Shown: one piece after another, positions 19,309-63,246 of the stretch
Layout of the letters: each line of letters starts with the position of its first letter
How positions within the stretch are numbered: the first letter of the stretch is position 1
Translations under genes and position numbers: made by a program
Notes under the pieces: model-generated
The model's database searches: none
What the model was told of the DNA's origin: nothing
What the model saw: only the letters and a program-made list of their open reading frames with translations
DNA from: a virus
Lineage: Duplodnaviria > Caudoviricetes
Reading direction: 5' to 3' (one strand)
IMG/VR virus record: IMGVR_UViG_3300028025_001987
Span: 1 to 63,424 of that record
Length of the DNA stretch: 63,424 nt

Positions 19309-21532
19309 TTTATGCCGTATAGTGGATAACCATATACCGGCTGCCGTCATCTCTAATAAAAATAGGGTGAGGTCGTGGTTGTATGGTTATAATCCGCAGT
19401 ATAATGTTATTGTTATCTCAAAGACCGGACAGATAGGACAGATAGTAGAGATAGAGGGATTATTTATTGCTCTTCCTGCTACACCCGAAAAGTGTCTTCA
19501 AAGACACTCCACTAAAGCTGAACAATATTGGGAGCGTCAAGAACTGCCACGAGAGTTGTTTAAAATACAATCCATATTTCAATGGAATGAAAAGCCAAAA
19601 GAATTTAAAGACCGTTGGGTTGATTATATTGAACAGGAGTTCGACTATAGAGACCAAGGTTTTTGGTTTATGAATAATGGGGTCAAGACCTACATAACAG
19701 GCTCACATTATATGTACTTGCAGTGGTCAAGCATTGACATAGGGTACCCTGATTTTCGTGAAGCGAATAGAGTCTATTGGATATTTTGGGAGGCTTGTCG
19801 TGCTGACCCAAGGTCTTTTGGTATGATATATCTAAAGATTAGACGTTCGGGATTCTCATTTATGTCATCTTCGGAGTGTATTAACATAGGTACGCTCGCA
19901 CGTGACGCACGTATAGGTATCCTGTCCAAGACGGGTGCTGATGCTAAAAAGATGTTTACCGACAAGGTAGTTCCTATCAATAGTCGTTTGCCTTTCTTTT
20001 TTAAGCCCGTTATGGATGGTATGGACAAGCCAAAGACTGAGTTGGCATTTAGAGTTCCTGCATCTAAGATTACCAAGAAGAATATGTATGAATCTAACGA
20101 CAATGAGATTGACGGATTAGATACATCAATAGATTGGAAGAATACGGAAGACAACTCATATGATGGAGAAAAACTATTGTTCTTGGCTCACGATGAGTCT
20201 GCCAAGTGGACTAAACCTGTAAACATCAAAGAGAATTGGCGTGTAACTAAAACCTGTTTGCGTTTAGGTAGTAAAATTATTGGTAAGTGTATGATGGGTT
20301 CAACGTCTAATGCTTTAAGCAAAGGAGGTCAGAACTACAAAGATATCTACGAGGATTCAAATGTAAAAGTTCGTAATGCTAACGGACAGACTAAGAGTGG
20401 CTTATATGCCCTATTTGTGCCGATGGAATGGAATATGGAAGGATTCATTGATAGATATGGTCATCCTGTATTTCGCAAGCCTGATGAGCCTATAATGGGC
20501 GTAGATGGCAATTGGATTATAAACGGAGCCATTGACTATTGGGAAGCAGAGGTTGAATCTTTAAAAAGTGATGCTGACGCACTAAACGAATTTTATCGTC
20601 AGTTTCCACGTACAGAGTCTCACGCTTTCAGAGATGAGAGCAAGCAGGCTTTGTTTAATTTAACAAAACTATATCAGCAGATTGATTATAATGACTCAAT
20701 GATTAAGGAGCATTACCTTACTCGTGGGTCTTTTTCGTGGAAAGATGGCATTAAGGATACTGAGGTTATTTGGACACCTGATACTCGTGGTAGGTTTAAT
20801 ATTGCTTGGGCACCACCTAAGCATATGCAGAATAATATTCACATACGCAATGGGATTAAATATCCCGGCAATGACCATCTTGGCTCATTTGGGTGTGACT
20901 CGTATGATATCTCAGCCGTGGTTGGAGGACGTGGGTCTAATGGTGCACTACACGGTATGACTAAGTTTCATATGGATGACGCTCCTGTCAATCAATTCTT
21001 TTTGGAGTACATTGCTCGTCCACAAACAGCAGAAATATTTTTTGAAGAGGTACTAATGGCGTGTATATTCTACGGAATGCCTATCTTAGTGGAGAATAAC
21101 AAGCCAAGACTTTTGTATCATATTAAAAATAGAGGGTACAGAGGTTTTTCTGTTAATAGACCTGATAAGCAAATGGCTAAGTTAACAAAGACTGAGAAAG
21201 AGTTAGGAGGTATTCCAAACTCATCAGAAGATGTAAAGCAAGCACACGCTTCTGCAATTGAGTCTTACATCGAGAAGTTTGTAGGATTAGATTTGGAAGC
21301 AAAATATAGAGACCCTGAGGAGATGGGCACGATGCCATTTACAAGAACTCTTGAAGATTGGGCAAGGTTTGATATAAACGATAGAACAAAATTTGATGCC
21401 TCTATTAGTTCAGGTTTATGTATAATGGCTAACCAAAAGCATTTATATATGCCTGAGAAAAAAGAATCAAATTTAATTATTAACTTTGCTAAGTATAAAA
21501 ACGATGGAACAACAAGTCAATTAATTAGATGA
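19283..21532 (+). CDS. terL: Terminase large subunit
   Basis: KIRRSGFS Walker A variant, FLAHDE Walker B, GST, FGCDSYD and ENN nuclease motifs. Confidence 0.9.
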   Translation: MQKEGQSNSLCRIVDNHIPAAVISNKNRVRSWLYGYNPQYNVIVISKTGQIGQIVEIEGLFIALPATPEKCLQRHSTKAEQYWERQELPRELFKIQSIFQWNEKPKEFKDRWVDYIEQEFDYRDQGFWFMNNGVKTYITGSHYMYLQWSSIDIGYPDFREANRVYWIFWEACRADPRSFGMIYLKIRRSGFSFMSSSECINIGTLARDARIGILSKTGADAKKMFTDKVVPINSRLPFFFKPVMDGMDKPKTELAFRVPASKITKKNMYESNDNEIDGLDTSIDWKNTEDNSYDGEKLLFLAHDESAKWTKPVNIKENWRVTKTCLRLGSKIIGKCMMGSTSNALSKGGQNYKDIYEDSNVKVRNANGQTKSGLYALFVPMEWNMEGFIDRYGHPVFRKPDEPIMGVDGNWIINGAIDYWEAEVESLKSDADALNEFYRQFPRTESHAFRDESKQALFNLTKLYQQIDYNDSMIKEHYLTRGSFSWKDGIKDTEVIWTPDTRGRFNIAWAPPKHMQNNIHIRNGIKYPGNDHLGSFGCDSYDISAVVGGRGSNGALHGMTKFHMDDAPVNQFFLEYIARPQTAEIFFEEVLMACIFYGMPILVENNKPRLLYHIKNRGYRGFSVNRPDKQMAKLTKTEKELGGIPNSSEDVKQAHASAIESYIEKFVGLDLEAKYRDPEEMGTMPFTRTLEDWARFDINDRTKFDASISSGLCIMANQKHLYMPEKKESNLIINFAKYKNDGTTSQLIR
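19492..19507. repeat. 16-bp palindrome copy (inside terL)
   Basis: GTGTCTTCAAAGACAC. Confidence 0.9.
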
Positions 21533-23964
21533 AAAATGTAACAGTACAAATAAATGCCACATCTTTCCCAAGTCAATTAGCAACTGATGCGGAAAGAGCA
21601 TCGAAGGAATTTGGACTTCAAGTGGGGCAAGGCATACAATATGAGTGGTTCCGTAAAGATGGTAACTCTTGTAGGTACTATAGCCAATGGAGAGATTTCC
21701 GTAGGCTAAGACTATATGCAAGAGGAGAACAACCAATTGGTAAATACAAAAACGAATTAGCTGTTGATGGTGATTTATCTTATTTAAATTTAGATTGGAC
21801 TCCTGTACCTATCATACCAAAGTTTGTTGACATTGTTGTTAACGGAATGTCTGATAGGCTTTTTAAGGTTAAGGCATATGCACAAGATGCAATGTCTCAA
21901 GCTAAAAGAAGTAAGTATCAAGATATGGTTGAGTCTCAAATGGTATCAAAAGATATTTTGACAACTATAAAAGACAAGACAGGTGTTGACGCATTTATGA
22001 TGGACCCTGAGCAACTTCCTGAAACAGACGAAGAGTTGTCGTTGTATATGCAGCTTAAGTTTAAGCCTGCGATTGAAATTGCAGAAGAAGAAGCAATCAA
22101 TACTATTTTTGATGAGAATCATTATGATGACTTAAGAAAGAGACTTGACTATGATGCAACAGTAATTGGTATTGAGGTTGCAAAGCACGAATTTTTACAA
22201 GGTACAGGCGTTCAAATTTCTTATGTTGACCCTGCTAATATTGTTTATAGTTATACTGAAGACCCATTCTTTAAAGATTGTTTTTATTGGGGTGAGATTA
22301 AAACGCTTCCAATAGGAGAGTTAATGAAGATTGACCAATCTTTAACTAGAGAAGATTTACAAGAGATTACGCAATATAGCCAAGCGTGGTATGATTATTA
22401 TAATGTAGCACAGTTCTATGAGAACAGTATGTTTAATCGTGATACTTGCACTTTATTATATTTTAATTATAAGACCACTAAAAAAGTAGTTTATAAAAAG
22501 AAAATTTTAGAAGGTGGTGGTTCTCGTATTATCGAGAAAGATGAAACTTTTAATCCTCCTACCGAGATGATGGAGGAAGGAAATTTTGAGAAAATAGAGA
22601 AAACTATTGACGTTTGGTATGAAGGTATTATGGTAATGGGTACCAATATCTTATTACAATGGAAGATGTCTGAAAATATGGTTCGTCCTAAGTCAGCATC
22701 TCAACACGCACTACCAAACTATGTAGCTTGTGCTCCACGTATGTATAAGGGAGTTATTGAGTCATTATGTAGAAGGATGATACCATTTGCTGATTTGATT
22801 CAAATTACGCATTTAAAATTACAACAAGTTATTGCACGTACAGTTCCGGATGGTGTCTTTATTGATGCTGATGGTTTAAACGAGATTGACTTAGGCACGG
22901 GTAACGCATACAATCCTGAGGATGCTTTAAGATTATACTTCCAAACGGGTAGTGTAATTGGACGTAGCTTTACTCAAGATGGTGACTTTAACAACGCAAG
23001 AGTGCCTATTACTCAGTTAAACTCTAACTCAGGTGCTGCTAAAACGCAGATGTTAATTACCAATATGAATCACTACGTTGATATGATTAGGTCTGTGACC
23101 GGTCTTAACGAAGCAAGAGATGGTTCTAATCCTGACCCTAACTCATTAGTTGGTCTACAAAAGATGGCTGCCTTAAACTCAAATACAGCTACAAGACACA
23201 TCCTTGATGGTTCTTTGTATGTTTATCGTTCATTAGCAGAGGCTTTAACTTATAGAATTGCTGACATTTTGCAATATGCTGACTTTAAAGACGAGTTTGC
23301 TAATCAAATTGGTAAGTACAATGTATCTATATTAGAAGAGATAAAAGACCTATATATTTATGACTTTGGTATATTCATTGAGGTTTCACCTGATGAAGAG
23401 CAAAAGGCACAATTAGAAGGTAATATCCAAATGGCATTATCTAAAGGTGACATTAACCTTGAGGATGCAATTGACATACGTGAGATTCGCAATATTAAAC
23501 TTGCTAATCAATTATTAAAGATGAAGCGTATTAAAACTCAAGAGCGTTTAGAGAAGAATGAGATGCAGAAGCAGGCAATGATTGCTCAGCAACAATTGAA
23601 GTCTCAAGAGATGGCAGGACAGGTTGCTATGCAAAAGATTGATTTGGAGACAAGGTCTAAGATGCAGATTAAACAAGCAGAGGTAGCCTTTGATATCCAA
23701 AAAATGGAGAAAGAAGCGGAGATGAAATCTTATTTGATGCGTGAGGAGTTTGACTACAACTTGCAGCTTCGTGGTATGGAGACAAGTAATATAAATAGCA
23801 GAGAGCAAACAAAAGAAGATGCTAAAGCAAAAAGAATTAGCCAACAAAATACAGAGCAATCTAAATTAATTAATCAAAGAAAGAACAATCTACCTCCAAT
23901 AAGTTTTGAATCAAATGAGGATAGTTTAGATGGCTTTGATTTAGCTGAATTTGAACCTAGATAA
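21529..23964 (+). CDS. Portal protein
   Basis: 811 aa directly after terL; PIIPKFVDIVVNG; long helical Gln-rich C-terminus. Confidence 0.85.
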   Translation: MKNVTVQINATSFPSQLATDAERASKEFGLQVGQGIQYEWFRKDGNSCRYYSQWRDFRRLRLYARGEQPIGKYKNELAVDGDLSYLNLDWTPVPIIPKFVDIVVNGMSDRLFKVKAYAQDAMSQAKRSKYQDMVESQMVSKDILTTIKDKTGVDAFMMDPEQLPETDEELSLYMQLKFKPAIEIAEEEAINTIFDENHYDDLRKRLDYDATVIGIEVAKHEFLQGTGVQISYVDPANIVYSYTEDPFFKDCFYWGEIKTLPIGELMKIDQSLTREDLQEITQYSQAWYDYYNVAQFYENSMFNRDTCTLLYFNYKTTKKVVYKKKILEGGGSRIIEKDETFNPPTEMMEEGNFEKIEKTIDVWYEGIMVMGTNILLQWKMSENMVRPKSASQHALPNYVACAPRMYKGVIESLCRRMIPFADLIQITHLKLQQVIARTVPDGVFIDADGLNEIDLGTGNAYNPEDALRLYFQTGSVIGRSFTQDGDFNNARVPITQLNSNSGAAKTQMLITNMNHYVDMIRSVTGLNEARDGSNPDPNSLVGLQKMAALNSNTATRHILDGSLYVYRSLAEALTYRIADILQYADFKDEFANQIGKYNVSILEEIKDLYIYDFGIFIEVSPDEEQKAQLEGNIQMALSKGDINLEDAIDIREIRNIKLANQLLKMKRIKTQERLEKNEMQKQAMIAQQQLKSQEMAGQVAMQKIDLETRSKMQIKQAEVAFDIQKMEKEAEMKSYLMREEFDYNLQLRGMETSNINSREQTKEDAKAKRISQQNTEQSKLINQRKNNLPPISFESNEDSLDGFDLAEFEPR

Positions 23965-26552: not shown

Positions 26553-26586
26553 GGGAGGGTGTCTTTAAAGACACTCTCCTTTTTTT
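26553..26586 (+). terminator. intrinsic terminator built on the 16-bp palindrome
   Basis: GGGAGG-GTGTCTTTAAAGACAC-TCTCCT followed by a T run. Confidence 0.8.
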
Positions 26587-26610
26587 AAATCAAATCAAAT
26601 TAAATATAAA

Positions 26611-38503: not shown

Positions 38504-41500
38504 ATGCCGGATTTAAAACAAGCGTTAAAAGATTTTGTAGCTACTTCTAATAGTGGTGTATATAAAGACGAGACCACTTTATTGTCTAAGTTCCCTGAGT
38601 TAAAGAGTTATGATATTAATGCATTAAAAGATTTTGTAGCTACCTCTAATAGCGGTGTATATACAAGTGAAGATGAGTTATTTTCTAAATTCCCTGAATT
38701 TGGAATTTCAAAAGAAGCCGAAGCATTAAAAAAAAAAGAGTCAATTACTACGGTATCACCTTTGGAAGATACTTTTTTGGCTTCGCAAAAACAACTTCCT
38801 AGCTTTGAGGTTAGTCCATTAAGAGCAGAGGCTCCTGTTAAAAAAGAAAAATTACTTAAAAATTTAGAAGCATTTGAACAGGCTACTGATAGAAATGCTT
38901 ATTTAGATAATATTGGTACAAGAGCATTATCAGGTGTTACTTCTTTCGATAAAATGGTTGCATCTATTCCTGAATCAATTATTAACGTAGCATCATTGCC
39001 TCAAAATGCATTAGCTTGGGCTACGGGTTGGGATATTGCGGCTAATGCTGACACATTTAAGAAAACATTAGGTATAAGCAATCCTATCTTAGATAAATTA
39101 AACGAAGAAGAAAAAAGACTTAGTGCTAAAACTGAAAAGTTTAATCAAGAAAGATATGAGAGTACAGGTATTGTAGATAATATACAAAAAGGAAATTATC
39201 AAGATGCATTTGAATTATTAGGAAGTAATATTATAGAATCTGCTCCTGTAAGTATAGCAATGATGGTTGGAGGAGCAACACTTGCTCCTACCGAATTGGC
39301 AGCAATTAGTACTGCTGCTTTTCTTGAGCAGAATAGAGAGCAGCTAGGAGAAGAAAATCCTGATATGCCTGAAGTAGAAAAGACAGTAAAAGCATTGGGA
39401 ATGGCTGCTGCAGAAACGGTATTTAGTGCTATTGGCACAGGTACAATTGGTCAAGTATATAAGGATATTATAAAAAAAGAAGGCGTAGAAGTAGGAAAGA
39501 ATATATTTAGAGATGGTTTAGTTGCTACATACAAAAGTGCATTAACTAAGTATGGTGTCCCAATAGGTCTTTTAGGAGAAGGTATAGAGGAAGCAGCTAC
39601 CCAAATTACTCAGAATGTACTTAGTGATAAATCCGCATTCCAAGGTGTTGCGGATGCATTTGTAACCGGAGCCGGAAGTGGCGTTGTATTTACTGCACCA
39701 ATTAGTGCAATAAAAGCTAGAGATAAAATAAAAGATTTTGTAGAAACTTCTCAATCTAAAAATGCAATAAAAACTGTATTAAAAGATAATGAGTTAACTC
39801 AAATTTATAATGTTCCTAAAGATAGCCCTATTACTTCTGAGCAAATAGAGATTGCTAATACCAATAAATCAAGAAATATATTGGTAAAAAATTTAGATAA
39901 AAAGGTAAAAAATGGCGAAATATCAGAAGATGACGCTAAACAATCAATATATGTATTTGATAAAATTCAACAAGTTTCAAATTCAGTAAAAGATTTAAAC
40001 GTAACTAATTCTGAAAAGGCAGAGATTGCTACTTTATTAAGCAAAAGAAATCAATTAACTACTGACATACAAAATAAAGACGATGTATTAGTAGTTAAAG
40101 AAAAACAAGAAATAGCAGATATTAATAAAAAAATTCAGGATATTATATTGGTTTCAAAACCACAACAAGTGGAAGAGGTTGCTGCTGAAACAAATTTAGG
40201 TCTTGAAAAAGAATTAAGAGAGGAATTTAATTATGATTATTATGAAGAAAACCTTAATAGCGAATTTGAGTGGCAAAGAGATTTTGCAAAAGAATTTTTA
40301 AATGACCCTAAAGCCGCTTTTGAAAAGAGTATTAAACTTTTTAAAGATGCACTACAACGAGAACCAAATAACCAATCTTACAAGGACTCATTAGATTATA
40401 ATGAAGAACGATTAAATAAGTGGAACGAAATAAATAATAAATATAAAACCGAACAAGATGCCATTCAAAAACAAATCACAGATGAAGGCTTGCTACGCAG
40501 CCAAGGACCCCAATTGGGATTGCAAAAAATGGGCGAAGGAAACCAAGGACTTGAAGTCGCTGCCACAGGGACCCAAGAAGTCGCTCCTACGCAACCGCAA
40601 CAAGAAATAGTAAAAGCAAAATTTGAAGGACCAATAACTCAAGAGTCATTAGAAACAATCCCTGAAAAAGATATTTCAGATGTGACTGAACAAATAAATA
40701 ATGGTCAAGCAAAATTAAATATAGACGCATTCCCTGCTACAGAATTAGGTACAGATAATAAAATCACAAATAACCAAAATGTATATTTATTACATTCGCA
40801 AGGTAAAGAGATTGGGATTTTAACTGTTAACAATGAAAAACTTGGTAACAGAGATGAAAGTTCAATAGCAGGTGTTGTTTTGCATCCTGACGTACAAGGA
40901 AAAGGAATCGGTAAAGAAATGTACCGATATGTAAATAATGATTTAATTGAAAATGGGAAACAGCCATTAAAATCAGATTACGATATAACTCCTGATGCAA
41001 TTAATGTATGGAAGAGTTTGGTTAAATCAGGAGAAGCAACTCAAATTGGAGTCTCTGAAAAAAATAATGTTCCTTTATTTCAAATGAACAAACCTTCTGT
41101 TGAGTTGGTGTCTTTAAAGACACAAGCACCTAAGTTTGTTAGAGACATCTCTGCTCTTATCACTCCGGCTACAGTGCGTGGATTCAGTCCACTTACTGAA
41201 AGGATTAAGAAGTTGTCGTTGAACTATGACAAACTTGTTAAGCAATACGCTAAAAAGAAAGACCCTAAAGTTCTTGCTAAAATAAAAACTGCGGAGGCTC
41301 AAATATTAAATGATGCCAAGCAGGAGATTATTGATGCAGTAGCAAATATTGATGGTGTATCTGTTCAGTTTAAAGATACCAAGCGTGGCTTATGGGATAA
41401 GAAATTTGAACCATCGTTCAATATGACCTTGTCAGTTAGTCCACAGGCGGATACTAAAAAGGTAAGCGACTTACTATTTGACTTTGCAGAGAAGTATTCT

Positions 41501-49027: not shown

Positions 49028-50479
49028 TCATAAATAAAAATCTTGTTTAAAATGATTCACCGTGTAGTCTTTCTTCTTTGTGACAGCCTTGTAGATGTCG
49101 TGTTCAATACCACCCTTGGCAAAAATCCAATACACTTGATTCTCAAGCCTCTCCTTTGTAGTCATTCGGTCTTTGCTCTGCCAATAACTCGTAGCACTGA
49201 AGTCAATGTTGTAGTAAACCAAATACTCAGCGTGTCTTAAACTGATTCCTTCTCGTCCACTTACAATCTGCAATGCTATATTCTTATTGGTGTCTTCAAA
49301 GACACTTAACTCGGAGGTTAAGTCGTCACCAAATATTTGTTTGAGTGCGTTGTACTCTTCTTTAAACTTATAGAAGATTCCAATCTTGCATCCTTCAAAC
49401 TGCTCTTTGATAAACTCAGCCTTGCTCAAATCAAGTATCATACTATTCCCACTCTCAAACTTAATCGTCCCGCTGCACAACTGATGCACCTTCATCATCA
49501 ACTTCACAGGAGTGTCCCCCAAAATTATTTCTTCTTTTCCTTCTATCACTAATTCTTTCTTTAATTTTTTTATCATCGCATAAGTTGATGGCTTCATCTC
49601 TACCTCCAATATTTCTTCTTTAGTCTCAGACATAAAACCTGCCTCCTGCTGTGTGTAGTTGATAGTATATGGTTCCATCTCTTTGAGTATGGTGTCAAGT
49701 CCGCCACTATAATCATTAACAAATAGTCCGTTAATCTTACGCTGTTTTACTTTAACATACTTATCGCAGAACCTATAAAAGTTTTTAAATTCTCTGAACG
49801 GGTTGTTAGGTATCGCATATACTTGATGGTACATTTGTGAGTATGACTCAGGTGTTGGTGTACCACTAAGTAATATCACCATTGGTCTGCATTTTTTAAT
49901 TACCTCTGATACCAATTCTGCCCTCCCGCTCGGTTTTGGAAACGCCCCCATCCCGTGTGCTTCATCACAAACAATCAAGTCCCACTTCTTTTCATTCATT
50001 ACAGTGTGTAGGCTTTCATAGTTAATTACTTGCATATAATACGAAGGGCTAAGCATTGAGTAGTCCTCTGATATGGTGCTCAGTGCTTTCTTCTTGGTAA
50101 TAAATAGCACATTTCTTGCAAGCACACGCACAGCTATTCCAAGACTTGTCAATGTCTTTCCGGTACGAACCTCCATTGCTAAATACAGGAAGCCATACTT
50201 AGAAAGTATTTGCTGACCTTTCTCAATTATGTCAATCTGATAATCTCTGTAATTAAATCCTTGTTTGTCCTCCATCTCGTATAAGTTTTTATAATGCTCG
50301 CAACTGCTGATAATCTTGTCTATGATTTCTTGCTCTGTGTTATACTTAAGAACTTCTCGTATCTCAACTGCCTTGCCCCTGCCCGACTTTGTAGTCTTGG
50401 TTTGTAATACAACTTTCTTAAGCGTTTCGCAATAGTCCCACATCGCCTTGTTATTATATCCTGAGGTACGTTCAATCAT
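49028..50479 (-). CDS. SF2 (SNF2-like) DNA helicase
   Basis: RDYQ, MEVRTGKT, INYE, DEAH, SGTP, GREGISL, Q..DR. Confidence 0.9.
   Translation of the reverse strand: MIERTSGYNNKAMWDYCETLKKVVLQTKTTKSGRGKAVEIREVLKYNTEQEIIDKIISSCEHYKNLYEMEDKQGFNYRDYQIDIIEKGQQILSKYGFLYLAMEVRTGKTLTSLGIAVRVLARNVLFITKKKALSTISEDYSMLSPSYYMQVINYESLHTVMNEKKWDLIVCDEAHGMGAFPKPSGRAELVSEVIKKCRPMVILLSGTPTPESYSQMYHQVYAIPNNPFREFKNFYRFCDKYVKVKQRKINGLFVNDYSGGLDTILKEMEPYTINYTQQEAGFMSETKEEILEVEMKPSTYAMIKKLKKELVIEGKEEIILGDTPVKLMMKVHQLCSGTIKFESGNSMILDLSKAEFIKEQFEGCKIGIFYKFKEEYNALKQIFGDDLTSELSVFEDTNKNIALQIVSGREGISLRHAEYLVYYNIDFSATSYWQSKDRMTTKERLENQVYWIFAKGGIEHDIYKAVTKKKDYTVNHFKQDFYL
49290..49305. repeat. 16-bp palindrome copy (inside helicase)
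   Basis: GTGTCTTCAAAGACAC. Confidence 0.9.
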
Positions 50480-54026: not shown

Positions 54027-54119
54027 TCGTCAGAGTGGGAATCGAACCCACACCATCTCTTACGAGTGCTCTAATTCCTCTAAGACTCCATTTAATTAGG
54101 AGCATTAAGCTATCTGACT
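54027..54119 (-). ncRNA. tRNA-like RNA lacking an anticodon loop
   Basis: GTCAGA/TCTGAC acceptor, TAGCTTAA start, T arm GTGGG-TTCGATT-CCCAC; anticodon arm replaced by CTC-GTAA-GAG; expanded D region. Confidence 0.6.
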
Positions 54120-56496: not shown

Positions 56497-56694
56497 TTAT
56501 TTATAAAACAATAAATCGCTATACTTCACATACACAAAACCATCGTGAATGATTTTGTCTGCATTATCCCACGACTCCTTCGTGATGATATGACCCTCAG
56601 GAAAATTTGGATTAGCCTCCAACTCCTGAATTAATAAGGACGCTTGCTCCTGCAACATCCTTAGTCTGTCTATTAGTGTTTCTTGCTTATCCAT
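56497..56694 (-). CDS. hypothetical protein
   Basis: 65-aa ORF. Confidence 0.5.
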   Translation of the reverse strand: MDKQETLIDRLRMLQEQASLLIQELEANPNFPEGHIITKESWDNADKIIHDGFVYVKYSDLLFYK

Positions 56695-57082: not shown

Positions 57083-57083
57083 T

Positions 57084-57320: not shown

Positions 57321-57324
57321 TTGA

Positions 57325-57639: not shown

Positions 57640-57773
57640 ACTGATTTGATTTGATTATAAATTAATTTGATAAAAATTATTACACATAGTAACGAATAGA
57701 TAGTGATAGCCAAAGGCACCGACACTAAGAAGAAGTAAACAAGCCCGAAGGATATTTTAAAAAACTTTTTCAT
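57615..57773 (-). CDS. small membrane protein
   Basis: MKKFFKISFGLVYFFLVSVPLAITIYSLLCVIIF. Confidence 0.45.
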   Translation of the reverse strand: MKKFFKISFGLVYFFLVSVPLAITIYSLLCVIIFIKLIYNQIKSVCQKITTR

Positions 57774-57783
57774 AGCATTTGGT

Positions 57784-58008
57784 TTAAAATGAAATAACAT
57801 CGAAGTCCTGATACATCTCAACTGTTGCCTTAGGGTACGCATTTTGCAACTCAAAGACATAGTCGTCATTGTCATAAAGAATATCATTCTCCCTTTCATA
57901 GGCTACCATTGGCTGAATGATTTTTTTGATTTGTTCCTCATCTAAGGTTGTCATTAGGTAGAAGTCCTCTTCCGCCCAAGCACTCGTGTTGATTTTAAAA
58001 ACTTGCAT
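57784..58008 (-). CDS. acidic hypothetical protein
   Basis: 74-aa ORF directly 3' of hammerhead C. Confidence 0.55.
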   Translation of the reverse strand: MQVFKINTSAWAEEDFYLMTTLDEEQIKKIIQPMVAYERENDILYDNDDYVFELQNAYPKATVEMYQDFDVISF

Positions 58009-58045
58009 TGTCGTGGTTTTAATGTTTGTTAAATTTAATAAATTT

Positions 58046-58097
58046 TCCGTTTCATCTTTTCAGAATCATCAGTCGGGACAACTCATCCCGATACGGA
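58046..58097 (-). ncRNA. type III hammerhead ribozyme C
   Basis: UCCG-UA / UCGGGA-UGAGUUG-UCCCGA / CUGAUGA / UUCU-GAAA-AGAU / GAAA-CGGA; predicted cut after GUA (58092/58091). Confidence 0.85.
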
Positions 58098-58102
58098 GGG
58101 CA

Positions 58103-58118
58103 GTGTCTTTGAAGACAC
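58103..58118. repeat. 16-bp palindrome copy 5' of hammerhead C
   Basis: GTGTCTTTGAAGACAC. Confidence 0.9.
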
Positions 58119-58135
58119 CACCCATCGCCACAAGC

Positions 58136-59254
58136 CTAAGGTTGGAATCGTAATACCTCAGACTCAGTGAACCACTCATCGCAACCACTACAATGATAAT
58201 TTGCGAACGCATCGTGCTCTAAATCGTGAAAGCAATTCACACATATAGGTTTCTCATTCTCTATGTCGAACTCGCAATCGTCACACTCATCGTCCAATAT
58301 GTCTAACAAGCACACACTCTTCGGCTCATCGTAGCCCATCTGAGAAAATATGCTTTGATATTTTTTACTCTCCCTCTCATCCTCTTTCTCCCAAAAACTT
58401 AACGGCTTATAATTTTGCGTGTAAGTTTTGTGATGCTCTTTTCCGTCTGCTGTCTCACGAATGTTGAAGTATATCCAACACTTAAGCACTCCGTTCTTAG
58501 TAGTCACATCAACTTGCTTCCTGCGATACCAATCAGGATGACCCTCCAATCTATCTAACTGAGCCAACACACCTGAACTGACTTTGAATATGTCCACCTC
58601 CACGTGATGACCTTGTCCACTCTTCTCAATCAAGTAAGGTAGTCCACTGATGATAAGCGGATACTTGCTCTTCGTGTTCCCTTTGGATACAAATTTTGAA
58701 GCACTGAGGTAGTGATGGTAATTGTTGTACCCCTTCTTTAACGTGCCGTAGACAGCAATTAAATTGTCCTCAAGGACGTTGTCCTTGCTGTACCAAACGC
58801 CATCCCTCTGACTCCACAACTCTTTGTTGTAGATTTGGTATGTCCTGCTGTGCGTGTTAACCGATACAAACCTGCACTCATACTGCTCCAACTCCTTCTT
58901 CCACTTGTGGCGTGGTATCTCACCCAAGTTCTCTGCTAATACTTTTGAGTCACTCTTCTTGACATTGCCAAGTGCTCTGATAGTTCCGTTCATCATAAGC
59001 CACTCTTGTTTGTTGCTCCCGCATCTGAATGGATGCGTGTTGTCTTTGTTGATAGCACCAATCGTGGCGTATCTAAAGTGAGCAATGAATGGTCTCGCTG
59101 TGTCGAGTATCTTATACTCTGCTGATTTGTGATACGTTACCTCGAACGTATCCAACCATACAACTCCCAATCCGTGGGGATTAATTCGTGCTGAGGTCTT
59201 TGCAACCTCCTGAGGGACTTTCTTCCCTTTCTGCTTGATAATGATTACACACAT
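58136..59254 (-). CDS. class II glutamine amidotransferase fused to gamma-glutamylcyclotransferase and a Zn ribbon
   Basis: N-terminal Cys (MCVII), NPHGLG, HFRYAT.G....NTHPF, MNG; AVYGTLKKG...LDRLEGHP.WYRR; CVNC/CSGC. Confidence 0.9.
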   Translation of the reverse strand: MCVIIIKQKGKKVPQEVAKTSARINPHGLGVVWLDTFEVTYHKSAEYKILDTARPFIAHFRYATIGAINKDNTHPFRCGSNKQEWLMMNGTIRALGNVKKSDSKVLAENLGEIPRHKWKKELEQYECRFVSVNTHSRTYQIYNKELWSQRDGVWYSKDNVLEDNLIAVYGTLKKGYNNYHHYLSASKFVSKGNTKSKYPLIISGLPYLIEKSGQGHHVEVDIFKVSSGVLAQLDRLEGHPDWYRRKQVDVTTKNGVLKCWIYFNIRETADGKEHHKTYTQNYKPLSFWEKEDERESKKYQSIFSQMGYDEPKSVCLLDILDDECDDCEFDIENEKPICVNCFHDLEHDAFANYHCSGCDEWFTESEVLRFQP

Positions 59255-59276
59255 AAGCTAAATTGGTTTGTGGGCA

Positions 59277-59292
59277 GTGTCTTTGAAGACAC
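59277..59292. repeat. 16-bp palindrome copy in the leader of the GATase gene
   Basis: GTGTCTTTGAAGACAC between a promoter-like TATCTTCG (59321-59328) and the ATG. Confidence 0.9.
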
Positions 59293-59360
59293 AGAACCCG
59301 ATGATTGAACTAATATTGAACGAAGATACGACATAATTTAGACATAACCAAATTTATTTT

Positions 59361-59522
59361 TCAATAAAGTTTTTTGGCTGTCATCATTTTCCTATCTATT
59401 GTCAACCCTTCTGCTGAAAATTTGTAAAACGCTTTGTCGATAGCCTCCCACTTTGTGTGGGCGACTACCAAGCAAAGACTTTTTTTCAAATAAAAAACTC
59501 TGAAACAATACTGATTCTCCAT
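59361..59522 (-). CDS. small hypothetical protein (not in ORF track)
   Basis: MENQYCFRVFY...AKKLY, 53 aa, AATCA leader. Confidence 0.5.
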   Translation of the reverse strand: MENQYCFRVFYLKKSLCLVVAHTKWEAIDKAFYKFSAEGLTIDRKMMTAKKLY

Positions 59523-59569
59523 ATCTGATTTGATTTAAGTTCTCTCATCCCAAAGGGATGCGAGTATTT

Positions 59570-59860
59570 TTAATAATCATCCTCCAACCTCTCCCCTGCA
59601 TACGATGGGTCGAAGTATCTATCCTTACGATACGGGTACTTGTTGCTGTCATAACACTTGTCGCACCAATCCCCCGTACCATACCCGTAGGCGTCACATC
59701 TGCTTTCGACTATCTCCTTCGTGTCTTTGGTCTCGCATCCTCTACACCTCGGTAGATTCTCGTAGCACCTTTCACATAGGTCATCCTCAAACCACATATC
59801 GTGGCGTCCTTGTGGGCGTGAACAACTTGAGCACTCCCACACATCATTTGCTTTTGTCAT
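59570..59860 (-). CDS. Cys-rich Zn-finger protein
   Basis: Four CxxC pairs. Confidence 0.6.
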   Translation of the reverse strand: MTKANDVWECSSCSRPQGRHDMWFEDDLCERCYENLPRCRGCETKDTKEIVESRCDAYGYGTGDWCDKCYDSNKYPYRKDRYFDPSYAGERLEDDY

Positions 59861-60057
59861 TTTAATTTGCGTTTAGTTACGTGATAGATTCTGATTCCGT
59901 CCTCGATTTTCATATCAATGGGATACACTGATACGAGCACATCAAGGTAGTGCTTGTACTCCTCCAACTTATCCGCAGGTAAGTAAAGAAGTCTGTCGAT
60001 AACGTCCTGAATAATCTCATTACGTTGGGTCTCAATAGTCATTTGTTCTTTAGTCAT
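59857..60057 (-). CDS. hypothetical protein
   Basis: 66-aa ORF. Confidence 0.5.
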   Translation of the reverse strand: MTKEQMTIETQRNEIIQDVIDRLLYLPADKLEEYKHYLDVLVSVYPIDMKIEDGIRIYHVTKRKLK

Positions 60058-60068
60058 TTGAATTTGAT

Positions 60069-60365
60069 TTAAACTGTGATTGATAAAACATAATTAAAAA
60101 ACTCGTATAGAGGCATACTTGAATACTTAACCGCATCCGCATACGTATCAAAGAAGTACTCTTCATTATCCCTTTGAATTGCAAACTTAATCGCATACCC
60201 TCCCTGATAATTGGTAAAGTGGATAATCTCAATCCAATTATCTAAGACAATGTGCCCTTGCGTCTTTGTCGGGTCATAGATTGCGTACTTGATTCTTGCC
60301 GTTGGACATTGCTCGTAGTACACCACGAATAATTCCTCCATCATTTGTTGATAATCTTTAGTCAT
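60069..60365 (-). CDS. hypothetical protein
   Basis: Start moved to MTKDYQQ behind AATCAAATCAAG, just 3' of hammerhead B. Confidence 0.55.
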   Translation of the reverse strand: MTKDYQQMMEELFVVYYEQCPTARIKYAIYDPTKTQGHIVLDNWIEIIHFTNYQGGYAIKFAIQRDNEEYFFDTYADAVKYSSMPLYEFFNYVLSITV

Positions 60366-60388
60366 CTTGATTTGATTTAAGTGGTTTC

Positions 60389-60436
60389 CGTTTCGTCCTT
60401 TGGGACTCATCAGCCCGAGCAACACACTCAGGGACG
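60389..60436 (-). ncRNA. type III hammerhead ribozyme B
   Basis: CG-UC / CCUGAG-UGUGUUG-CUCGGG / CUGAUGA / GUCC-CAAA-GGAC / GAAA-CG; predicted cut after GUC (60433/60432). Confidence 0.88.
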
Positions 60437-60438
60437 CA

Positions 60439-60454
60439 GTGTCTTTGAAGACAC
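60439..60454. repeat. 16-bp palindrome copy 5' of hammerhead B
   Basis: GTGTCTTTGAAGACAC. Confidence 0.9.
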
Positions 60455-60463
60455 CGCCACTTG

Positions 60464-61039
60464 TTAAGCAAGGCAATAAGCCTCAGATAAAATTCTCACC
60501 GCCTTATCTACATCCTCAGGACGGACAACTACAAAATAGTTAGGTCGATACACGCCATCAGTATCTGACTCCGTCTTTCTTGTTGGTATCCCTTCCCCGT
60601 TTAACATTGCCTCCACCGGCTCGATGCTTGCCTCTTTCAATGAATGAAACACCGCATACACCGGCTTACTGTAACCCTCCGGCATCCACTCACTCGTCAC
60701 ATCAAACTCAGGCTCCTGCACATTCGCCCCATCCACATATTCAATCCCATCATTCCACGCATCCACGTTGACCCATCCACCCTCCCACGCCCTGCCATTG
60801 AGGAACCAATTGCCCCTGACTTGTTGGATATGCACACCGCTCAATCCATTGAGCCTCTCCTTTGTGGTTTTACTCTTCCATCCTGCATTGCTTATCCATA
60901 AGCCATCCCTCCTGATTTCGGCTATCTTGTTGTCGAATAGCCATAAACTCTCACCATCCGTTCTGCTGTTGTCGATTCGTAATGAACGGCTATTTTGAAA
61001 AGCGTTCACGATATCTTGTGTTATCTGTCTCATTGTCAA
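60464..61039 (-). CDS. conserved phage early protein
   Basis: L..N.IA......I...GW.S.TTKERLN pattern. Confidence 0.65.
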   Translation of the reverse strand: MTMRQITQDIVNAFQNSRSLRIDNSRTDGESLWLFDNKIAEIRRDGLWISNAGWKSKTTKERLNGLSGVHIQQVRGNWFLNGRAWEGGWVNVDAWNDGIEYVDGANVQEPEFDVTSEWMPEGYSKPVYAVFHSLKEASIEPVEAMLNGEGIPTRKTESDTDGVYRPNYFVVVRPEDVDKAVRILSEAYCLA

Positions 61040-61052
61040 TTGATTTAAATGG

Positions 61053-61247
61053 TTACTTAATTATTTTCTTTAACTCAGTCTCAAGCATTTGCATAGAGAC
61101 AGCGACTAAGAAAATTGATGACATCCATACAAAAAGGGTAACACCTGCTGACGTGTTAAACTTGTAAGGCAAATAAACTCCGATAATTGCTCCTAATAAG
61201 CCACTACCAAATAAGATTCCGATTTTTGTGATTACTGATTTTTTCAT
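61053..61247 (-). CDS. small two-TM membrane protein
   Basis: Two hydrophobic segments. Confidence 0.55.
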   Translation of the reverse strand: MKKSVITKIGILFGSGLLGAIIGVYLPYKFNTSAGVTLFVWMSSIFLVAVSMQMLETELKKIIK

Positions 61248-61252
61248 TTTGA

Positions 61253-61381
61253 TTAGATTTGATTGATTAATAAATTTTGTTCTGCTTGCTCCATAAAGTA
61301 GTCGAACTCAAAAATAAGACGCCACTCGTGTAAGGCTTGCTCGTTGGGAAATGTCATCCCGTTGTGGTTTACTGATTCCAT
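61253..61381 (-). CDS. small hypothetical protein (not in ORF track)
   Basis: MESVNHNGMTFPNEQALHEW..., 42 aa, AATCAAATG start just 3' of hammerhead A. Confidence 0.45.
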   Translation of the reverse strand: MESVNHNGMTFPNEQALHEWRLIFEFDYFMEQAEQNLLINQI

Positions 61382-61403
61382 TTGATTAAATTTTTTGTGG
61401 TTT

Positions 61404-61454
61404 GCTGTTTCGTTCTTTAGAACTCATCAGGAGGGATACTCATCCCCCGACAGC
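61404..61454 (-). ncRNA. type III hammerhead ribozyme A
   Basis: GCUG-UC / GGGGGA-UGAGUA-UCCCUC / CUGAUGA / GUUC-UAAA-GAAC / GAAA-CAGC; predicted cut after GUC (61449/61448). Confidence 0.92.
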
Positions 61455-61458
61455 GGAA

Positions 61459-61474
61459 GTGTCTTTGAAGACAC
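61459..61474. repeat. 16-bp palindrome copy 5' of hammerhead A
   Basis: GTGTCTTTGAAGACAC. Confidence 0.9.
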
Positions 61475-61486
61475 TCCCTCTCGTGA

Positions 61487-62365
61487 TTAATAGTTTCGCA
61501 CGTATTGTGCAATATCTTGATGCACCTCACCTTTCAGAATGTACGCCCTGAATAGCTTTGATAACCTCAACACCTCGTTGGCGTCATCCTCATTGCCATT
61601 ATACATTGAAACAATGATAGGCTTGATTTTCTTAAGCAATCCTTCGTGTGAGCCATTAGGCGTTGCGATGCTGTAGTTAACAATCTCATACATTAGCTCA
61701 TATCTCCTCATCATTTGCTTAACTGACTGAAAGCGAGACGGAACCCTAAACTCAAGGCATCCACCCTTTACAAGGGCTAATTGGTACTTGTGGTGCCAAT
61801 TGGTAGACTCGGTTGAATTTTGCATCCTGCTATTGTAACTGCAATAACTATTTGCTATTCGCTTTTTGAATAGAGCAAGGACGATACCGCAATTTTTACG
61901 AATGGCATCCCTCAAGGCATCACCACTCATCCCCTCACAAGCTATGGTGATATGACCGCCACACCTTCTATCCGAAGGGCTAAACCTATCATCGATAATC
62001 TTTTCAGCCTTGTGCATCATATCATAAACTTTTGTCCTCCACCCACCTGCAGGTAACAAAGGGAGCACGTGGGTAACGGCTTCGTATCCGCACGACCCAT
62101 CACGCTCAAACCCACAAAATAATTCATATTCACGCACCGCATTACGGCTCAATTGGTTTTTCTCAACCTCAAACCCAATTGTAAATTTAGAGGCATACTC
62201 ACCGCTTTCAAACTTAATCGAACTACGCTGTTGTGCCGGCTTAAGCCCTGCAATATCGACAGCGTGTTTGCTTTTGTTTAGAAACAATGGCGAAGGCTTA
62301 GAGTGGTAACTTGCCACTTGACCCCTTCGACTTTCTCCTGTTGTTGAATAAATGATTCCGTTCAT
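61487..62365 (-). CDS. putative amidoligase (COOH-NH2 ligase, amidoligase_2-like)
   Basis: IGFEVE, .DGS..YE.VT, CGGHI, KY..L....LEFR. Confidence 0.75.
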   Translation of the reverse strand: MNGIIYSTTGESRRGQVASYHSKPSPLFLNKSKHAVDIAGLKPAQQRSSIKFESGEYASKFTIGFEVEKNQLSRNAVREYELFCGFERDGSCGYEAVTHVLPLLPAGGWRTKVYDMMHKAEKIIDDRFSPSDRRCGGHITIACEGMSGDALRDAIRKNCGIVLALFKKRIANSYCSYNSRMQNSTESTNWHHKYQLALVKGGCLEFRVPSRFQSVKQMMRRYELMYEIVNYSIATPNGSHEGLLKKIKPIIVSMYNGNEDDANEVLRLSKLFRAYILKGEVHQDIAQYVRNY

Positions 62366-62389
62366 TGTAGTAAATTTTAGGTGGTTAAA

Positions 62390-63037
62390 TTATCTATTTT
62401 GTAAACTGAAATTCAATACAGCGATTGCCTCCCTGATTTGCTCATCGCTGTTTGTGGTTTTTACTAAGCCGTTTGCATCGATACGCACTGAAACATTGCC
62501 GGCTTCGTTTTTGTACGTGAAAGTTAAAATGGTTTCAACACGTGTTTCAACTTGTGGCTCACTTTCAGCGTCTCCGCTTTCAGCGTCTCCGCCTTCTCCA
62601 CCTGCATTGGTGCCCGACTCCACCTGCTTTGCAAATTTTAATAAACCCTCAAGGCTTCTATTCGGCTCCTCACCTTGAGCCTCTACCTCATTGCATTTTG
62701 CATTGAATGACTCGATAACCTCGGGCTGTAGGCGTCCTGCTTTCACTACTTTGTAGAAAAAACTTTTTTGCCATCCAAAAACTTTTTGTCCAATCTCCTC
62801 ATTGCTCCAACTGATACCCTCATCGGTGCAAACTCTTTGCCCCTCCGGTGATTGAAACCAATCTACAGCCGTAGTAACTAACTTACTCAAGGCAAGCGTT
62901 TGCTCGAATTTCTTTTTCTTAGCATTCGTGATAGTACGTTGCACGCTCCTAATTTCGCTCAAGTTCAAGCCCTGCTTGACTTGTGGTAGGCTTAGGAAAG
63001 CCGTTTCGATTGATAGTAATTGACTCATTGTGTTCAT
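62390..63037 (-). CDS. hypothetical early protein
   Basis: 215-aa ORF, first gene after the 63068 promoter. Confidence 0.65.
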   Translation of the reverse strand: MNTMSQLLSIETAFLSLPQVKQGLNLSEIRSVQRTITNAKKKKFEQTLALSKLVTTAVDWFQSPEGQRVCTDEGISWSNEEIGQKVFGWQKSFFYKVVKAGRLQPEVIESFNAKCNEVEAQGEEPNRSLEGLLKFAKQVESGTNAGGEGGDAESGDAESEPQVETRVETILTFTYKNEAGNVSVRIDANGLVKTTNSDEQIREAIAVLNFSLQNR

Positions 63038-63067
63038 TTTTTGGTTATTAATTGATTAATTCTTTCA

Positions 63068-63075
63068 CAAATATA
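63068..63075 (-). promoter_or_regulatory. -7 promoter element for the early operon
   Basis: TATATTTG on the minus strand. Confidence 0.6.
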
Positions 63076-63230
63076 GTTTATTACTCCATTCCACCAAATA
63101 AATATTTGCTTTTTTTTGGCTCATTACGTGAAACCCTTATGAATAAAGGGCTTGAGGCTTCGATATTCTTGTACTATGTTTGAACTAAGGATGAACAAAG
63201 GAGGGGCAAAGCCTTCTTTCTAGGGGCTTT

Positions 63231-63246
63231 GTGTCTTTAAAGACAC
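63231..63246. repeat. 16-bp perfect palindrome copy
   Basis: GTGTCTTTAAAGACAC. Confidence 0.9.

Follow-up and report, generated by a model that had tools for sequence, protein, structure and literature searches.

A 16-bp palindrome beside ribozymes, inside genes and upstream of a candidate early promoter in a phage family

The IMG/VR virus record IMGVR_UViG_3300028025_001987 (Duplodnaviria; Caudoviricetes), hereafter the window (the whole stretch of 63,424 bases that was analyzed), contains a 16-bp palindrome, GTGTCTTNNAAGACAC, that recurs between genes, within genes and in a divergent control region. The question raised by these sites is what holds their sequence fixed, given that a hairpin alone would tolerate compensatory changes in its stem. 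An original prediction, made from the sequence alone, argued that such constancy points to a sequence-specific reader, acting either on DNA, as a dimeric phage protein at an operator, or on RNA, as a factor bound to a tag at processed 3′ ends. The answer developed here joins the two: we give roughly an even chance, on comparative sequence evidence, to the palindrome being an RNA 3′-end hairpin and also the site of a phage-encoded sequence-specific reader. Specifically, the palindrome would be the invariant core of a family-wide intercistronic punctuation element that is read twice.

An exact scan returned 10 matches to GTGTCTTNNAAGACAC in the window, where 100 dinucleotide-preserving shuffles gave an expectation of 0.00 and a maximum of 0. 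The motif named in the original prediction is therefore real and far above its expected count; the tally of nine given there had missed the copy at 41108, in the gene for a 2969-aa protein. Allowing up to two mismatches still yielded 10 sites (0.40 expected) and brought in no degenerate copies, so the palindrome is present all-or-none. GTGTCT occurs 17 times and AGACAC 18 times in the window, 10 of each inside palindromes, and isolated half-sites are not in excess of the ~12 expected by a hand estimate from base composition. The copies start at 19492, 26559, 41108, 49290, 54124, 58103, 59277, 60439, 61459 and 63231, with plus-strand centers of CA (twice), TA (three times) and TG (five times). 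Three are coding, one lies in the control region and six are intergenic; the assignment of 19492, 26559 and 49290 to terL, the capsid-gene terminator and the helicase gene held up, as did the crowding of copies toward the genome end (6 of 10 within 54124-63246). The copies and the RNA elements beside them are given below, where R1 denotes our own ribozyme-only covariance model, and G and L numbers denote relatives' genomes and relatives' loci or contigs, respectively:

19492..19507, plus strand: palindrome in terL, codons AAG TGT CTT CAA AGA CAC; bare 6-7 bp hairpin, stem unextended
26553..26587, plus strand: capsid-gene terminator, a GGGAGG-GTGTCTTTAAAGACAC-TCTCC hairpin and then T7; -19.1 kcal/mol, z -5.3
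41108..41123, plus strand: palindrome in the 2969-aa virion-protein gene; the homologous gene also holds copies in G002, G004 and G005
49290..49305, minus strand: palindrome in the helicase gene, AGT GTC TTT GAA GAC ACC, SVFEDT
54027..54119, minus strand: tRNA-like element; Rfam tRNA 35.9 bits
54124..54139, minus strand: palindrome hairpin, 4 nt upstream of the tRNA-like element
58045..58097, minus strand: type III hammerhead; GUA triplet, U-U as first helix II pair; Rfam RF00008 35.6 bits; R1 71.8 (this copy belonged to the R1 training set)
58103..58118, minus strand: palindrome, core of an 11-bp hairpin abutting the hammerhead
59277..59292, minus strand: palindrome hairpin; the ATG of a GATase/GGCT-like gene follows 22 nt downstream; no ribozyme
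60386..60438, minus strand: type III hammerhead; Rfam 35.2 bits; R1 63.5 bits; covariation
60439..60454, minus strand: palindrome, core of a hairpin abutting the hammerhead
61403..61454, minus strand: type III hammerhead; Rfam 44.4 bits, E 3.1e-07; R1 70.1 bits
61459..61474, minus strand: palindrome, core of a 10-bp hairpin abutting the hammerhead
63231..63246, no strand assigned: bare palindrome in the divergent control region, ~135 bp upstream of a candidate early promoter and adjoining CAGGCAAT iterons

The three coding copies occupy three different codon phases (KCLQRH, VSLKT and SVFEDT), which rules out a protein motif. Folding energies separate two classes: the transcribed intergenic copies have extended stems (-13 to -19 kcal/mol), and those in terL, the giant virion-protein gene, the helicase gene and the control region amount to the bare core (-6.6 to -9 kcal/mol).

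The RNA surroundings of the intergenic copies are consistent with the formation of RNA 3′ ends. In an Rfam search, type III hammerheads (RF00008) were found 3-4 nt after the copies at 58103, 60439 and 61459, so that three of these ribozymes stand within ~3.4 kb of the early operon, all on its sense strand. Each aligns to the entire RF00008 model (positions 1-54), the triplets being GUC, GUC and GUA, with E-values of 3e-07 to 1.3e-04 in a 10-kb search and none at the gathering threshold in a whole-window search. For 61395-61485, the minimum-free-energy fold (-31.9 kcal/mol, z -3.5) matches expectation exactly: first a 10-bp hairpin, then the three-way junction of the hammerhead. The hammerhead consensus implies a cleavage site 3-6 nt after the closed stem, and a cut at that position would make the hairpin the 3′ end of the upstream RNA. 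Contigs from RNA libraries span the ribozyme sites, and transcript starts and ends cannot be read from contigs.

Two further copies adjoin signals of other kinds. The element at 54027-54119 scores 35.9 bits against the Rfam tRNA model (gathering threshold 29) and has a canonical acceptor stem and T arm. It also carries a 31-nt insert in the D region that forms a hairpin, and its anticodon arm is reduced to 3 bp and a 4-nt loop, with only 4 nt where 11 are expected. ARAGORN called no tRNA in 54027-54119, with introns allowed or not. The reduced anticodon arm and the ARAGORN result are the reasons for which we file it as tRNA-like rather than as a tRNA, and it probably serves as a signal for RNase P processing and not in decoding. 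The element is kept in relatives L094 and L169, and in L170 ARAGORN calls a 93-nt tRNA-Val in the same slot. The copy at 26559, for its part, forms the top of a 12-bp hairpin that is followed by T7 and lies 18 nt after the stop of the capsid-like gene, an arrangement that fits an intrinsic terminator. All 12 genomes compared have a hairpin and T-run in this slot, and in the window, G002, G007 and G009 the hairpin is built on the genome's own palindrome.

The suggestion of a tag on processed RNA 3′ ends is thus supported by direct adjacency to hammerheads, tRNA-like element and U-tract. In the sense RNA, the palindrome would be the tip of a hairpin directly 5′ of one of these three modules, the tRNA-like element presumably being cut by RNase P. 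After cleavage or termination, the upstream message would end in the hairpin and a tail of only 3-6 nt; the hairpin should then stop 3′-exonucleases, and in this way a long early transcript from one promoter would be converted into stable gene-length mRNAs. A hairpin promoter for a phage RNA polymerase, as in N4-like phages, was also considered; no RNA polymerase domain was found in the 57 open reading frames (ORFs) scanned, including both giant proteins, and this option was rejected because hammerhead helix III starts 0-6 nt after the hairpin, so that transcription must read through it.

To place these modules in the family, we drew on the primase-helicase, for which at least 598 relatives were confirmed in IMG/VR; 80 relative loci with 66-99% primase-helicase identity were retained. 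A further comparison was MW202828.1, an uncultured 'Caudoviricetes sp.' from a spring that is the closest named relative by terL (77.8% identity). The R1 model, built from 59 modules, was searched against the window, the 80 loci and MW202828, 1.58 Mb in total, on both strands. It returned 94 hammerhead matches, all on the early-gene strand, with zero antisense and zero in MW202828. Sixty-five of 87 distinct hammerheads are preceded by GTGTC-N6-GACAC, whose end falls -1 to 6 nt before the ribozyme in 61 cases, and 6 of 87 follow another lineage's palindrome. Among the 22 hammerheads that have no preceding GTGTC-N6-GACAC, 21 still abut a stable hairpin. A hairpin followed by a hammerhead is therefore the general architecture, and the particular core is present in most, not all, cases.

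Covariation separates the parts of these modules. In an RNAalifold analysis of the 59 modules, double-sided changes numbered 16-34 per pair in helix I, 12-15 in helix II and 0-20 in helix III, and the columns of the hammerhead core (CUGAUGA ... GAAA and the NUH triplet) were invariant. Covariation extends to the outermost two pairs of the hairpin: one shows 20 double changes, and its neighbor is G.U in 28 and A-U in 25 modules. The five pairs of the palindrome core never change, an invariance that counts for less than it seems because the modules were picked by motif, which makes it partly circular; 65 of 87 is the unbiased count. Pairing at the four positions flanking the core occurs in 37-55% of 129 distinct non-coding copies (25% expected by chance), with G.U 68 times against A.C 32 times on the sense strand. 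In another count of non-coding copies, the center reads CA on the sense strand in ~92 and TG in 7; orthologous copies in these flank and center counts are not independent.

These observations bear directly on the possibility that the palindrome is a DNA operator or stoperator only, with the RNA hairpin an unavoidable by-product of its symmetry. Such an account would draw on the 5-N6-5 geometry, on the control-region and coding copies, and on a helix-turn-helix (HTH)-like protein that varies together with the sites, as discussed below. It would also have precedents in the stoperators and repressors of cluster A mycobacteriophages (PMC6550527, in the part available) and in KorB acting from distal palindromic OB sites (PMC11790492, likewise in part). 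It does not account for stem extensions that covary and admit G.U on the sense strand, for the close spacing of hairpin and ribozyme (-1 to 6 nt in 61 of 65 pairs), for core-less hammerheads that still have another stable hairpin in place, or for a terminator copy with its U-tract. Stem covariation, ribozyme adjacency, substitute hairpins and U-tract together indicate that the RNA hairpin itself is selected, and we regard a purely DNA-level role as highly improbable. The structural RNA role proposed here is supported because the stems are extended and covary, because cleavage or termination modules lie next to them and because other hairpins can substitute where the core is missing; a function in 3′-end formation would be in keeping with this structure.

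A second layer of constraint, acting on sequence, became apparent when palindromes were compared between genomes. Each genome is uniform in its core, and cores differ between lineages. In MW202828, GTGTCTT is missing (0 copies), and GTGTCGTTAACGACAC, which differs symmetrically at pair 6/11 (T:A to G:C), occurs 14 times without variation. These copies are confined to its early/replication region, and the majority are spaced 3 nt from the preceding stop codon and 16-23 nt from the ATG that follows. The R1 search placed no hammerhead beside any of these 14 hairpins, and an Rfam E-value scan of 53000-63424 in the window and 45001-60850 in MW202828 showed no other ribozyme class after ribozyme-less copies. 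Elsewhere, GAGGGTT-N2-AACCCTC occurs 11 times per genome and GTTCGGT-N-ACCGAAC, TCCGTTATAACGGA and GTGTACT-N-AGTACAC 8 times each, and GTGTCG-N4-CGACAC is a further variant. The groups within this one phage family include GTGTCTT, GTGTCGT, GTGTACT, GAGGGTT, GTTCGGT and TCCGTTA. Their palindromes share the slots used in the window: the control region and the positions ahead of the GATase/GGCT gene and of each lineage's hammerheads.

The coding copies provide a test of constraint at synonymous sites. At the helicase site, compared across 76 loci, exact arms were kept in 22 of 24 SVFEDT loci that have at least two other copies; nine more exact helicase copies lie in truncated loci and are unclassifiable. 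The exact form is AGT GTC TTT/TTC GAA GAC ACN, and neighboring synonymous sites vary freely. The two exceptions, L169 and L230, are also loci whose hairpins differ. Five loci with no hairpin system (L226, L234, L235, L236 and L239) encode the same six amino acids with codons that have drifted to GTA/GTG, TTC, GAG or GAT. Similarly, the terL codons AAG TGT CTT CAA AGA CAC are exact in the window, G002, G003 and G004, and the copy is decayed or absent in relatives that have no such system: one of them reads AAG TGT CAT CAA AGA CAT, and in others the residues themselves differ, the segment evidently being a variable linker. Relics decayed by one or two bases stand at the terminator, helicase and CxxC-gene slots of genomes that have no hairpin system. 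As the original prediction anticipated, then, synonymous positions at the helicase and terL copies are frozen, and they are so only in relatives that bear the system.

Taken together, genome-wide uniformity, switching of the core as a block, frozen codons and decay where the early module is missing demonstrate a sequence constraint beyond that of folding. The argument from fixed sequence to a sequence-specific reader is strengthened accordingly, given that helices and outer pairs covary with GTGTC and GACAC held fixed and that palindromes are uniform within lineages. One case deserves mention: in L169, an IMG/VR contig with 96% primase identity, all six copies carry a single change at pair 6/11 (C6, G11 or C11), which could be a specificity shift in progress or could be systematic sequencing error at a modified base.

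Uniformity of this kind might also arise with no dedicated reader, if hairpin or hairpin-ribozyme cassettes spread and were homogenized by recombination, with lineage differences reflecting swaps of early modules. The early genes between cassettes do vary among close relatives. In one metatranscriptome run, a variant of the window lacks 1044 bases between two hairpin-ribozyme modules (60413-61458, with loss of the genes at 60464-61380), joining 60413 to 61458 with 26 other letters at the joint, which amounts to the gain or loss of genes with cassettes as the boundaries. In G007 and G008, the late genes are similar and the early palindromes differ, and the capsid terminator of G008 keeps the GAGGG stem, as module swapping would have it. 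Exchange mediated by PeSL (promoter-early/stem-loop) cassettes has, moreover, been documented (PMC4122927, as far as the available part goes). Recombination of this type does not explain, however, why the ribozyme and outer stem have diverged by compensatory changes and the core has not, and the hairpins come with no promoter part. The copies in the helicase gene and terL are also out of its reach, as they arose without indels, are kept at synonymous sites and decay where the system is missing, for which recombination over 16 bp offers no explanation. We therefore consider homogenization with no reader improbable.

In terms of where a reader might act, the control region is informative, and two further features are needed here:

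63068..63098, minus strand: candidate early promoter, TTTG-N19-TATATTTG; the first early ATG follows ~30 nt downstream; found by regex
62390..63037, minus strand: first early gene, 215 aa ('gp215'), candidate reader; AlphaFold2 pLDDT 90.6

A regex scan of the early strand of the early region for TTTG-N17-22-TAnnTTTG, which we take to be the Bacteroidota -33/-7 promoter consensus, gave a single match, at 63068-63098. The palindrome at 63231 adjoins three CAGGCAAT iterons (~63263-63290). Control regions of relatives are laid out in the same way, with the genome's own palindrome beside G/C-rich iterons and 170-330 nt before the 215-aa-type gene; an equivalent copy is present in G002, G003, G005, G007, G009 and MW202828. 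In G038, at least five tandem imperfect palindromes, GTGTACTCAATACAC, each then followed by T5-6, are spaced with a period of 23-24 bp (59934-59995 and 89-103), and this array adjoins six or more GTTGGTAC iterons. In G008, the first copy falls between the -7-like box and the ATG of the candidate gene, in the 5′ leader and 20 nt before the ATG. The control layout, conservation of arms only and bare coding copies would fit a dimeric DNA-binding protein and are harder to explain by an RNA hairpin.

Some other features of this part of the genome were recorded. A second consensus-like promoter, TTTG-N18-TAAATTTG, lies at 3820-3849 (minus strand), upstream of a lone minus-strand gene for a 156-aa protein (3060-3530) that stands inside the plus-strand block and whose MW202828 homologue is annotated 'repressor protein'. 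In G002 (5350-5440), G003 (10900-10960), G005 and G009, a conserved hairpin with T8-9 and then GAGGGGTGGGGGG lies between the start of the rightward operon and the iteron block; it is terminator-like, with no gene upstream in that direction. The final ~125 bases of the window (63300-63424) are an inverted copy of ~62820-62950, inside the first early gene. One DNA run and one RNA run containing the phage both part from the window at 63304 and continue ...GGCAGGCAGGCAGGCAATGA, and for this reason the window's end is probably an assembly artefact, with ~200-250 nt of the relatives' control region absent from it.

The same evidence bears on a reader confined to RNA, that is, a phage protein (the 215-aa protein or another) that binds or cuts the GUGUC...GACAC stem and leaves the DNA palindrome with no function of its own. 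Known proteins of this sort would be SLBP on the 3′ stem-loops of histone mRNA, or Csy4/Cas6 on CRISPR repeat hairpins. All non-coding copies of the early operon are at modules that form RNA 3′ ends, the loop shows a sense-strand bias (CA ~92 against TG 7), G.U exceeds A.C in the flanks, and the 14 MW202828 hairpins, having no hammerheads, leave room for a cutting or protecting protein. The leader position of the first G008 copy is likewise what a translational operator would show. Against this stand the few genomes in which only 5-bp arms are constant and the six central bases vary, since conservation of the stem and not the loop is unusual for readers of RNA hairpins. An RNA-only role is also difficult to reconcile with the control-region copy upstream of the sole consensus-like early promoter and beside iterons, with the phased tandem array of G038, or with coding copies that are bare of any stem extension. 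Finally, the best fold matches of the candidate are DNA-binding HTH domains, and a Pfam-type domain scan of the window ORFs found no nuclease or known RNA-binding domain among the early genes. On balance, we judge a reader of RNA only to be unlikely.

Returning to the reading in which the palindrome serves both as 3′-end hairpin and as site of a reader, we lean modestly toward a dimeric reader of the palindrome in double-stranded DNA over a reader of the RNA hairpin. The inner 5-7 bp would then be recognized by a phage-encoded, lineage-specific factor, most likely the 215-aa protein with its KorB/ParB-like helix-turn-helix. As a guess, DNA binding could switch early transcription off or control it over a distance, in the manner of stoperators or KorB. 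This second reading of the element would explain why copies are identical within a genome and why bare copies sit in terL, the helicase gene and the virion-protein gene. It would also explain the copy beside iterons upstream of the early promoter and the switching of palindromes between lineages along with a protein helix.

The first early gene is the most likely source of this reader, for the following reasons. The readers named in the original prediction, a DnaA_C-like protein (55847) and the winged-HTH-like 156-aa protein (3060), are not favored, being core genes also present in relatives that have no repeated palindrome (their genes are found in 18 of 20 records and in 16 of 16 records at least 90% complete), and the 215-aa protein is the better candidate. 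In a gene comparison of 11 genomes, the 215-aa gene was found in 7 of 8 palindrome-bearing and 0 of 3 palindrome-free genomes, and the eighth was found by profile. The comparison of protein with palindrome was made on whole genomes, gene presence within 22-kb loci having been dropped as confounded by locus coverage. With the profile, all 13 near-complete genomes that have a homologue also have a dominant palindrome at 7-15 copies, and in 10 genomes with no homologue the commonest palindrome reaches only 2-4 copies; this contrast of 13/13 with 0/10 is weakened by confounding, since the gene shares one early module with most copies and the genomes are relatives of one another. Genomes with no such protein carry decayed relics in terL and at the terminator, helicase and CxxC-gene slots. 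The family comprises 1057 close relatives and 241 representatives. The most conserved stretch of the protein, KVFGWQKSFFYKVVKAG (helix KSFFYKVVKAG), persists throughout the GTGTC genomes, including those where overall identity falls to 43%, and differs in each lineage with another palindrome. In L169, the only genome with all six sites changed at pair 6/11, this helix has a V-to-M substitution that is unique among the sequences compared, a single case.

The AlphaFold2 model of the 215-aa protein (pLDDT 90.6, pTM 0.77) is helical to residue 144, including an HTH-like helix pair, and continues with an acidic linker and a small beta-beta-alpha C-terminal domain. An exhaustive VIA-align search of the PDB placed the KorB DNA-binding domain first (8qa8_A, Z 5.0, root-mean-square deviation 3.2 Å over 81 residues; 1r71_A, Z 4.5), a match that is weak in that, by VIA-align's own caution, Z below 8 is common for helical proteins. 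Lower matches were DNA complexes of VirB, SopB and P1 ParB (Z 3.6-3.9) and, at about Z 4, sigma-factor domain 4 and AraC-type HTHs. A structure search of BFVD gave only four unnamed relatives. DUF3102, the nearest named Atlas cluster (0.91, 135 shared features), is a lead only and is absent from the Pfam hits of 78 relatives. The KorB-like fold predicted from the model is accordingly a lead that fits and no proof.

Several observations weigh against the combination of 3′-end hairpin and reader. On the protein side, Foldseek of the model against the PDB gave no match at E <= 0.001, the 215-aa sequence has no match in Pfam (nor do 78 relatives), PHROG or the PDB (a chance PDB hit had E 0.022), and no search detected an N-terminal ParB/Srx CTPase domain. 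The genome G029, an intermediate case among the 10 with no 215-aa homologue, keeps two exact GTGTCTT copies and two decayed variants, for four GTGTC-N6-GACAC sites in all. The promoter call is a regex match to an assumed consensus. On the RNA side, the window hammerheads, at 44.4, 35.6 and 35.2 bits, fall under the Rfam gathering threshold of 48.5. Sixteen of 87 hammerheads, some of them in GTGTC genomes, follow unrelated G+C-rich hairpins, from which it follows that ribozyme function needs no palindrome core. The palindrome occupies about a quarter of early intercistronic gaps (5/21 in the window, WIN, and 7/23 in MW202828, MW, by crude ORF calls, as are those in relatives generally), and of the 9 system-bearing genomes compared, only 4 build the capsid terminator on their own palindrome.

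Several known systems share parts of this pattern. Hammerheads flanking single genes in prophage and phage operons, for which processing into gene-length mRNAs has been proposed, were described by Perreault et al. (2011; PMC3088659, in its available part). As in those operons, several hammerheads here lie between genes of one long phage transcript. The available part of that report mentions no conserved preceding hairpin, whereas here a hairpin abuts helix III essentially always. Its core is mostly invariant and lineage-specific, and it also occurs ribozyme-free, in terminators, genes and the control region. Stoperators of temperate cluster A mycobacteriophages are, according to the accessible parts of two reports, 13-bp asymmetric sites oriented with transcription and read by a monomeric repressor (PMC6550527; PMC9283540). 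They resemble the present sites in being numerous genome-wide, mostly off promoters with one near an early promoter, and in that related phages differ in site consensus and, here putatively, in cognate protein. They differ in that the site here is a perfect palindrome that doubles as an RNA hairpin beside ribozymes, with binding by the candidate reader a prediction. No lysogeny genes were seen in domain scans of the window ORFs.

On plasmid RK2, OB operators occur in multiple copies. These palindromic operators are read by KorB, which acts from distal sites (PMC11790492, in the part available). Both cases thus involve a multi-copy palindrome, some copies of it far from promoters, on a replicon of ~60 kb. 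In contrast to KorB, the 215-aa protein has no detected CTPase domain or sequence similarity, and no KorA-like partner was identified. PeSL cassettes of T4-type phages combine an early promoter and a stem-loop and mediate cassette exchange (PMC4122927, accessible part). Both place near-identical stem-loops between early genes that are small and variable, and both show genes gained and lost with cassettes as the boundaries. A PeSL contains a promoter, however, and in the window none follows the hairpins in a scan with the -33/-7 consensus; here it is a ribozyme that follows. PeSLs have also not been reported inside conserved genes, where the palindrome does occur.

Outside phages and plasmids, histone mRNAs carry a conserved 16-nt hairpin (6-bp stem, 4-nt loop) near their endonucleolytic 3′ end, where it is bound by SLBP. 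This stem-loop, and the RNase III sites of T7, share with the present element a hairpin a few nt from a 3′ end made by cleavage; here the cut would come from a cis ribozyme or tRNA-like signal and not from U7/CPSF or RNase III, and no homology is implied. Repetitive extragenic palindromes (REP) and the bacterial interspersed mosaic elements (BIME) built from them, which are associated with REP-associated tyrosine transposases (RAYT), are genome-specific, lie after genes and can stabilize the upstream mRNA. Unlike these, the present palindrome has no Y1/RAYT transposase beside it in domain scans of the window, is not repeated in the listed host genomes, and has in-gene copies that involve no indels. 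No single known system named here combines all of these features.

With respect to the genome itself, the window is an entire IMG/VR virus record rated 100% complete (37% G+C) and is a complete ~63-kb water-borne phage from a large family. Plus-strand genes extend to ~47.5 kb and encode GroEL/GroES, a 2850-aa fibre-like protein, terL (assigned by a PHROG terminase match, E 1.8e-180), a portal, a capsid-like protein and virion proteins of 1630 and 2969 aa. Minus-strand genes run from 63037 down to 47573, small early genes first, followed by replication and nuclease genes (a Sak-type annealing protein, an exonuclease, a primase-helicase, an SNF2-type helicase and nucleases). After MW202828, the next terL relatives are Flavobacterium phages of genus Elemovirus (44%) and then phages of Cellulophaga, Tenacibaculum and Maribacter. 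A motif scan of IMG/VR found at least 161 loci, with many ~60-kb contigs that hold 2-16 exact copies of the palindrome. A scan of one genome per bacterial species found at least 123 loci scattered over phyla, and among those listed all are single-copy save one, a 56-kb phage-like contig binned in a Cytophagales metagenome-assembled genome. On the loci listed, the palindrome is therefore a property of the phage and not of its host, and a host-derived repeat is rejected.

Other genes of the window were also recorded. A Tad2-like anti-Thoeris domain protein (2582-2833, plus strand; Pfam PF11195, E 7e-24) is encoded next to the phage GroEL (871-2541) and GroES (2837-3094) genes. Between the palindromes of the early region lie an ORF that reads by motif as amidoligase-like and has no Pfam hit (61487-62365, minus strand) and a fused class-II GATase/gamma-glutamyl-cyclotransferase ORF (58136-59254, minus strand; Pfam GGACT 4e-23). 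In the comparison of 11 genomes, both genes co-occur with the hairpin system, more leakily than the 215-aa gene does, and their pairing recalls a predicted phage peptide-ligase system.

In summary, the interpretation offered in the original prediction is partly supported, with its reader now replaced by a candidate from the start of the early operon. A limited literature search found no publication describing the palindrome element; absence from print is not established by such a search. Looking across the family, it is possible, although we hold this tentatively and at less than even confidence, that these virulent phages share a network in which the first protein made, with a KorB/ParB-like HTH, reads about 10 sites, that protein and site have co-diversified into at least six specificity groups, and that the same sites serve as 3′-end hairpins of mRNA.

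Phage hammerheads are common, and their role has largely been inferred; a fixed hairpin partner at the newly made 3′ end would offer a concrete model of what they do. Bacteroidota lack the Shine-Dalgarno-led logic of operons, and the arrangement described here may serve as a model for how their phages cut and stabilize early messages. The hairpin-ribozyme and hairpin-tRNA-like modules would be compact natural insulators, comparable to those used in synthetic biology. A core that switches as a block, codons that are frozen with it and a KorB-like protein that tracks it would also constitute a natural series in which to follow the joint change of protein and site specificity. Finally, the palindrome groups may define 'immunity-like' groups among abundant freshwater and marine lytic phages.

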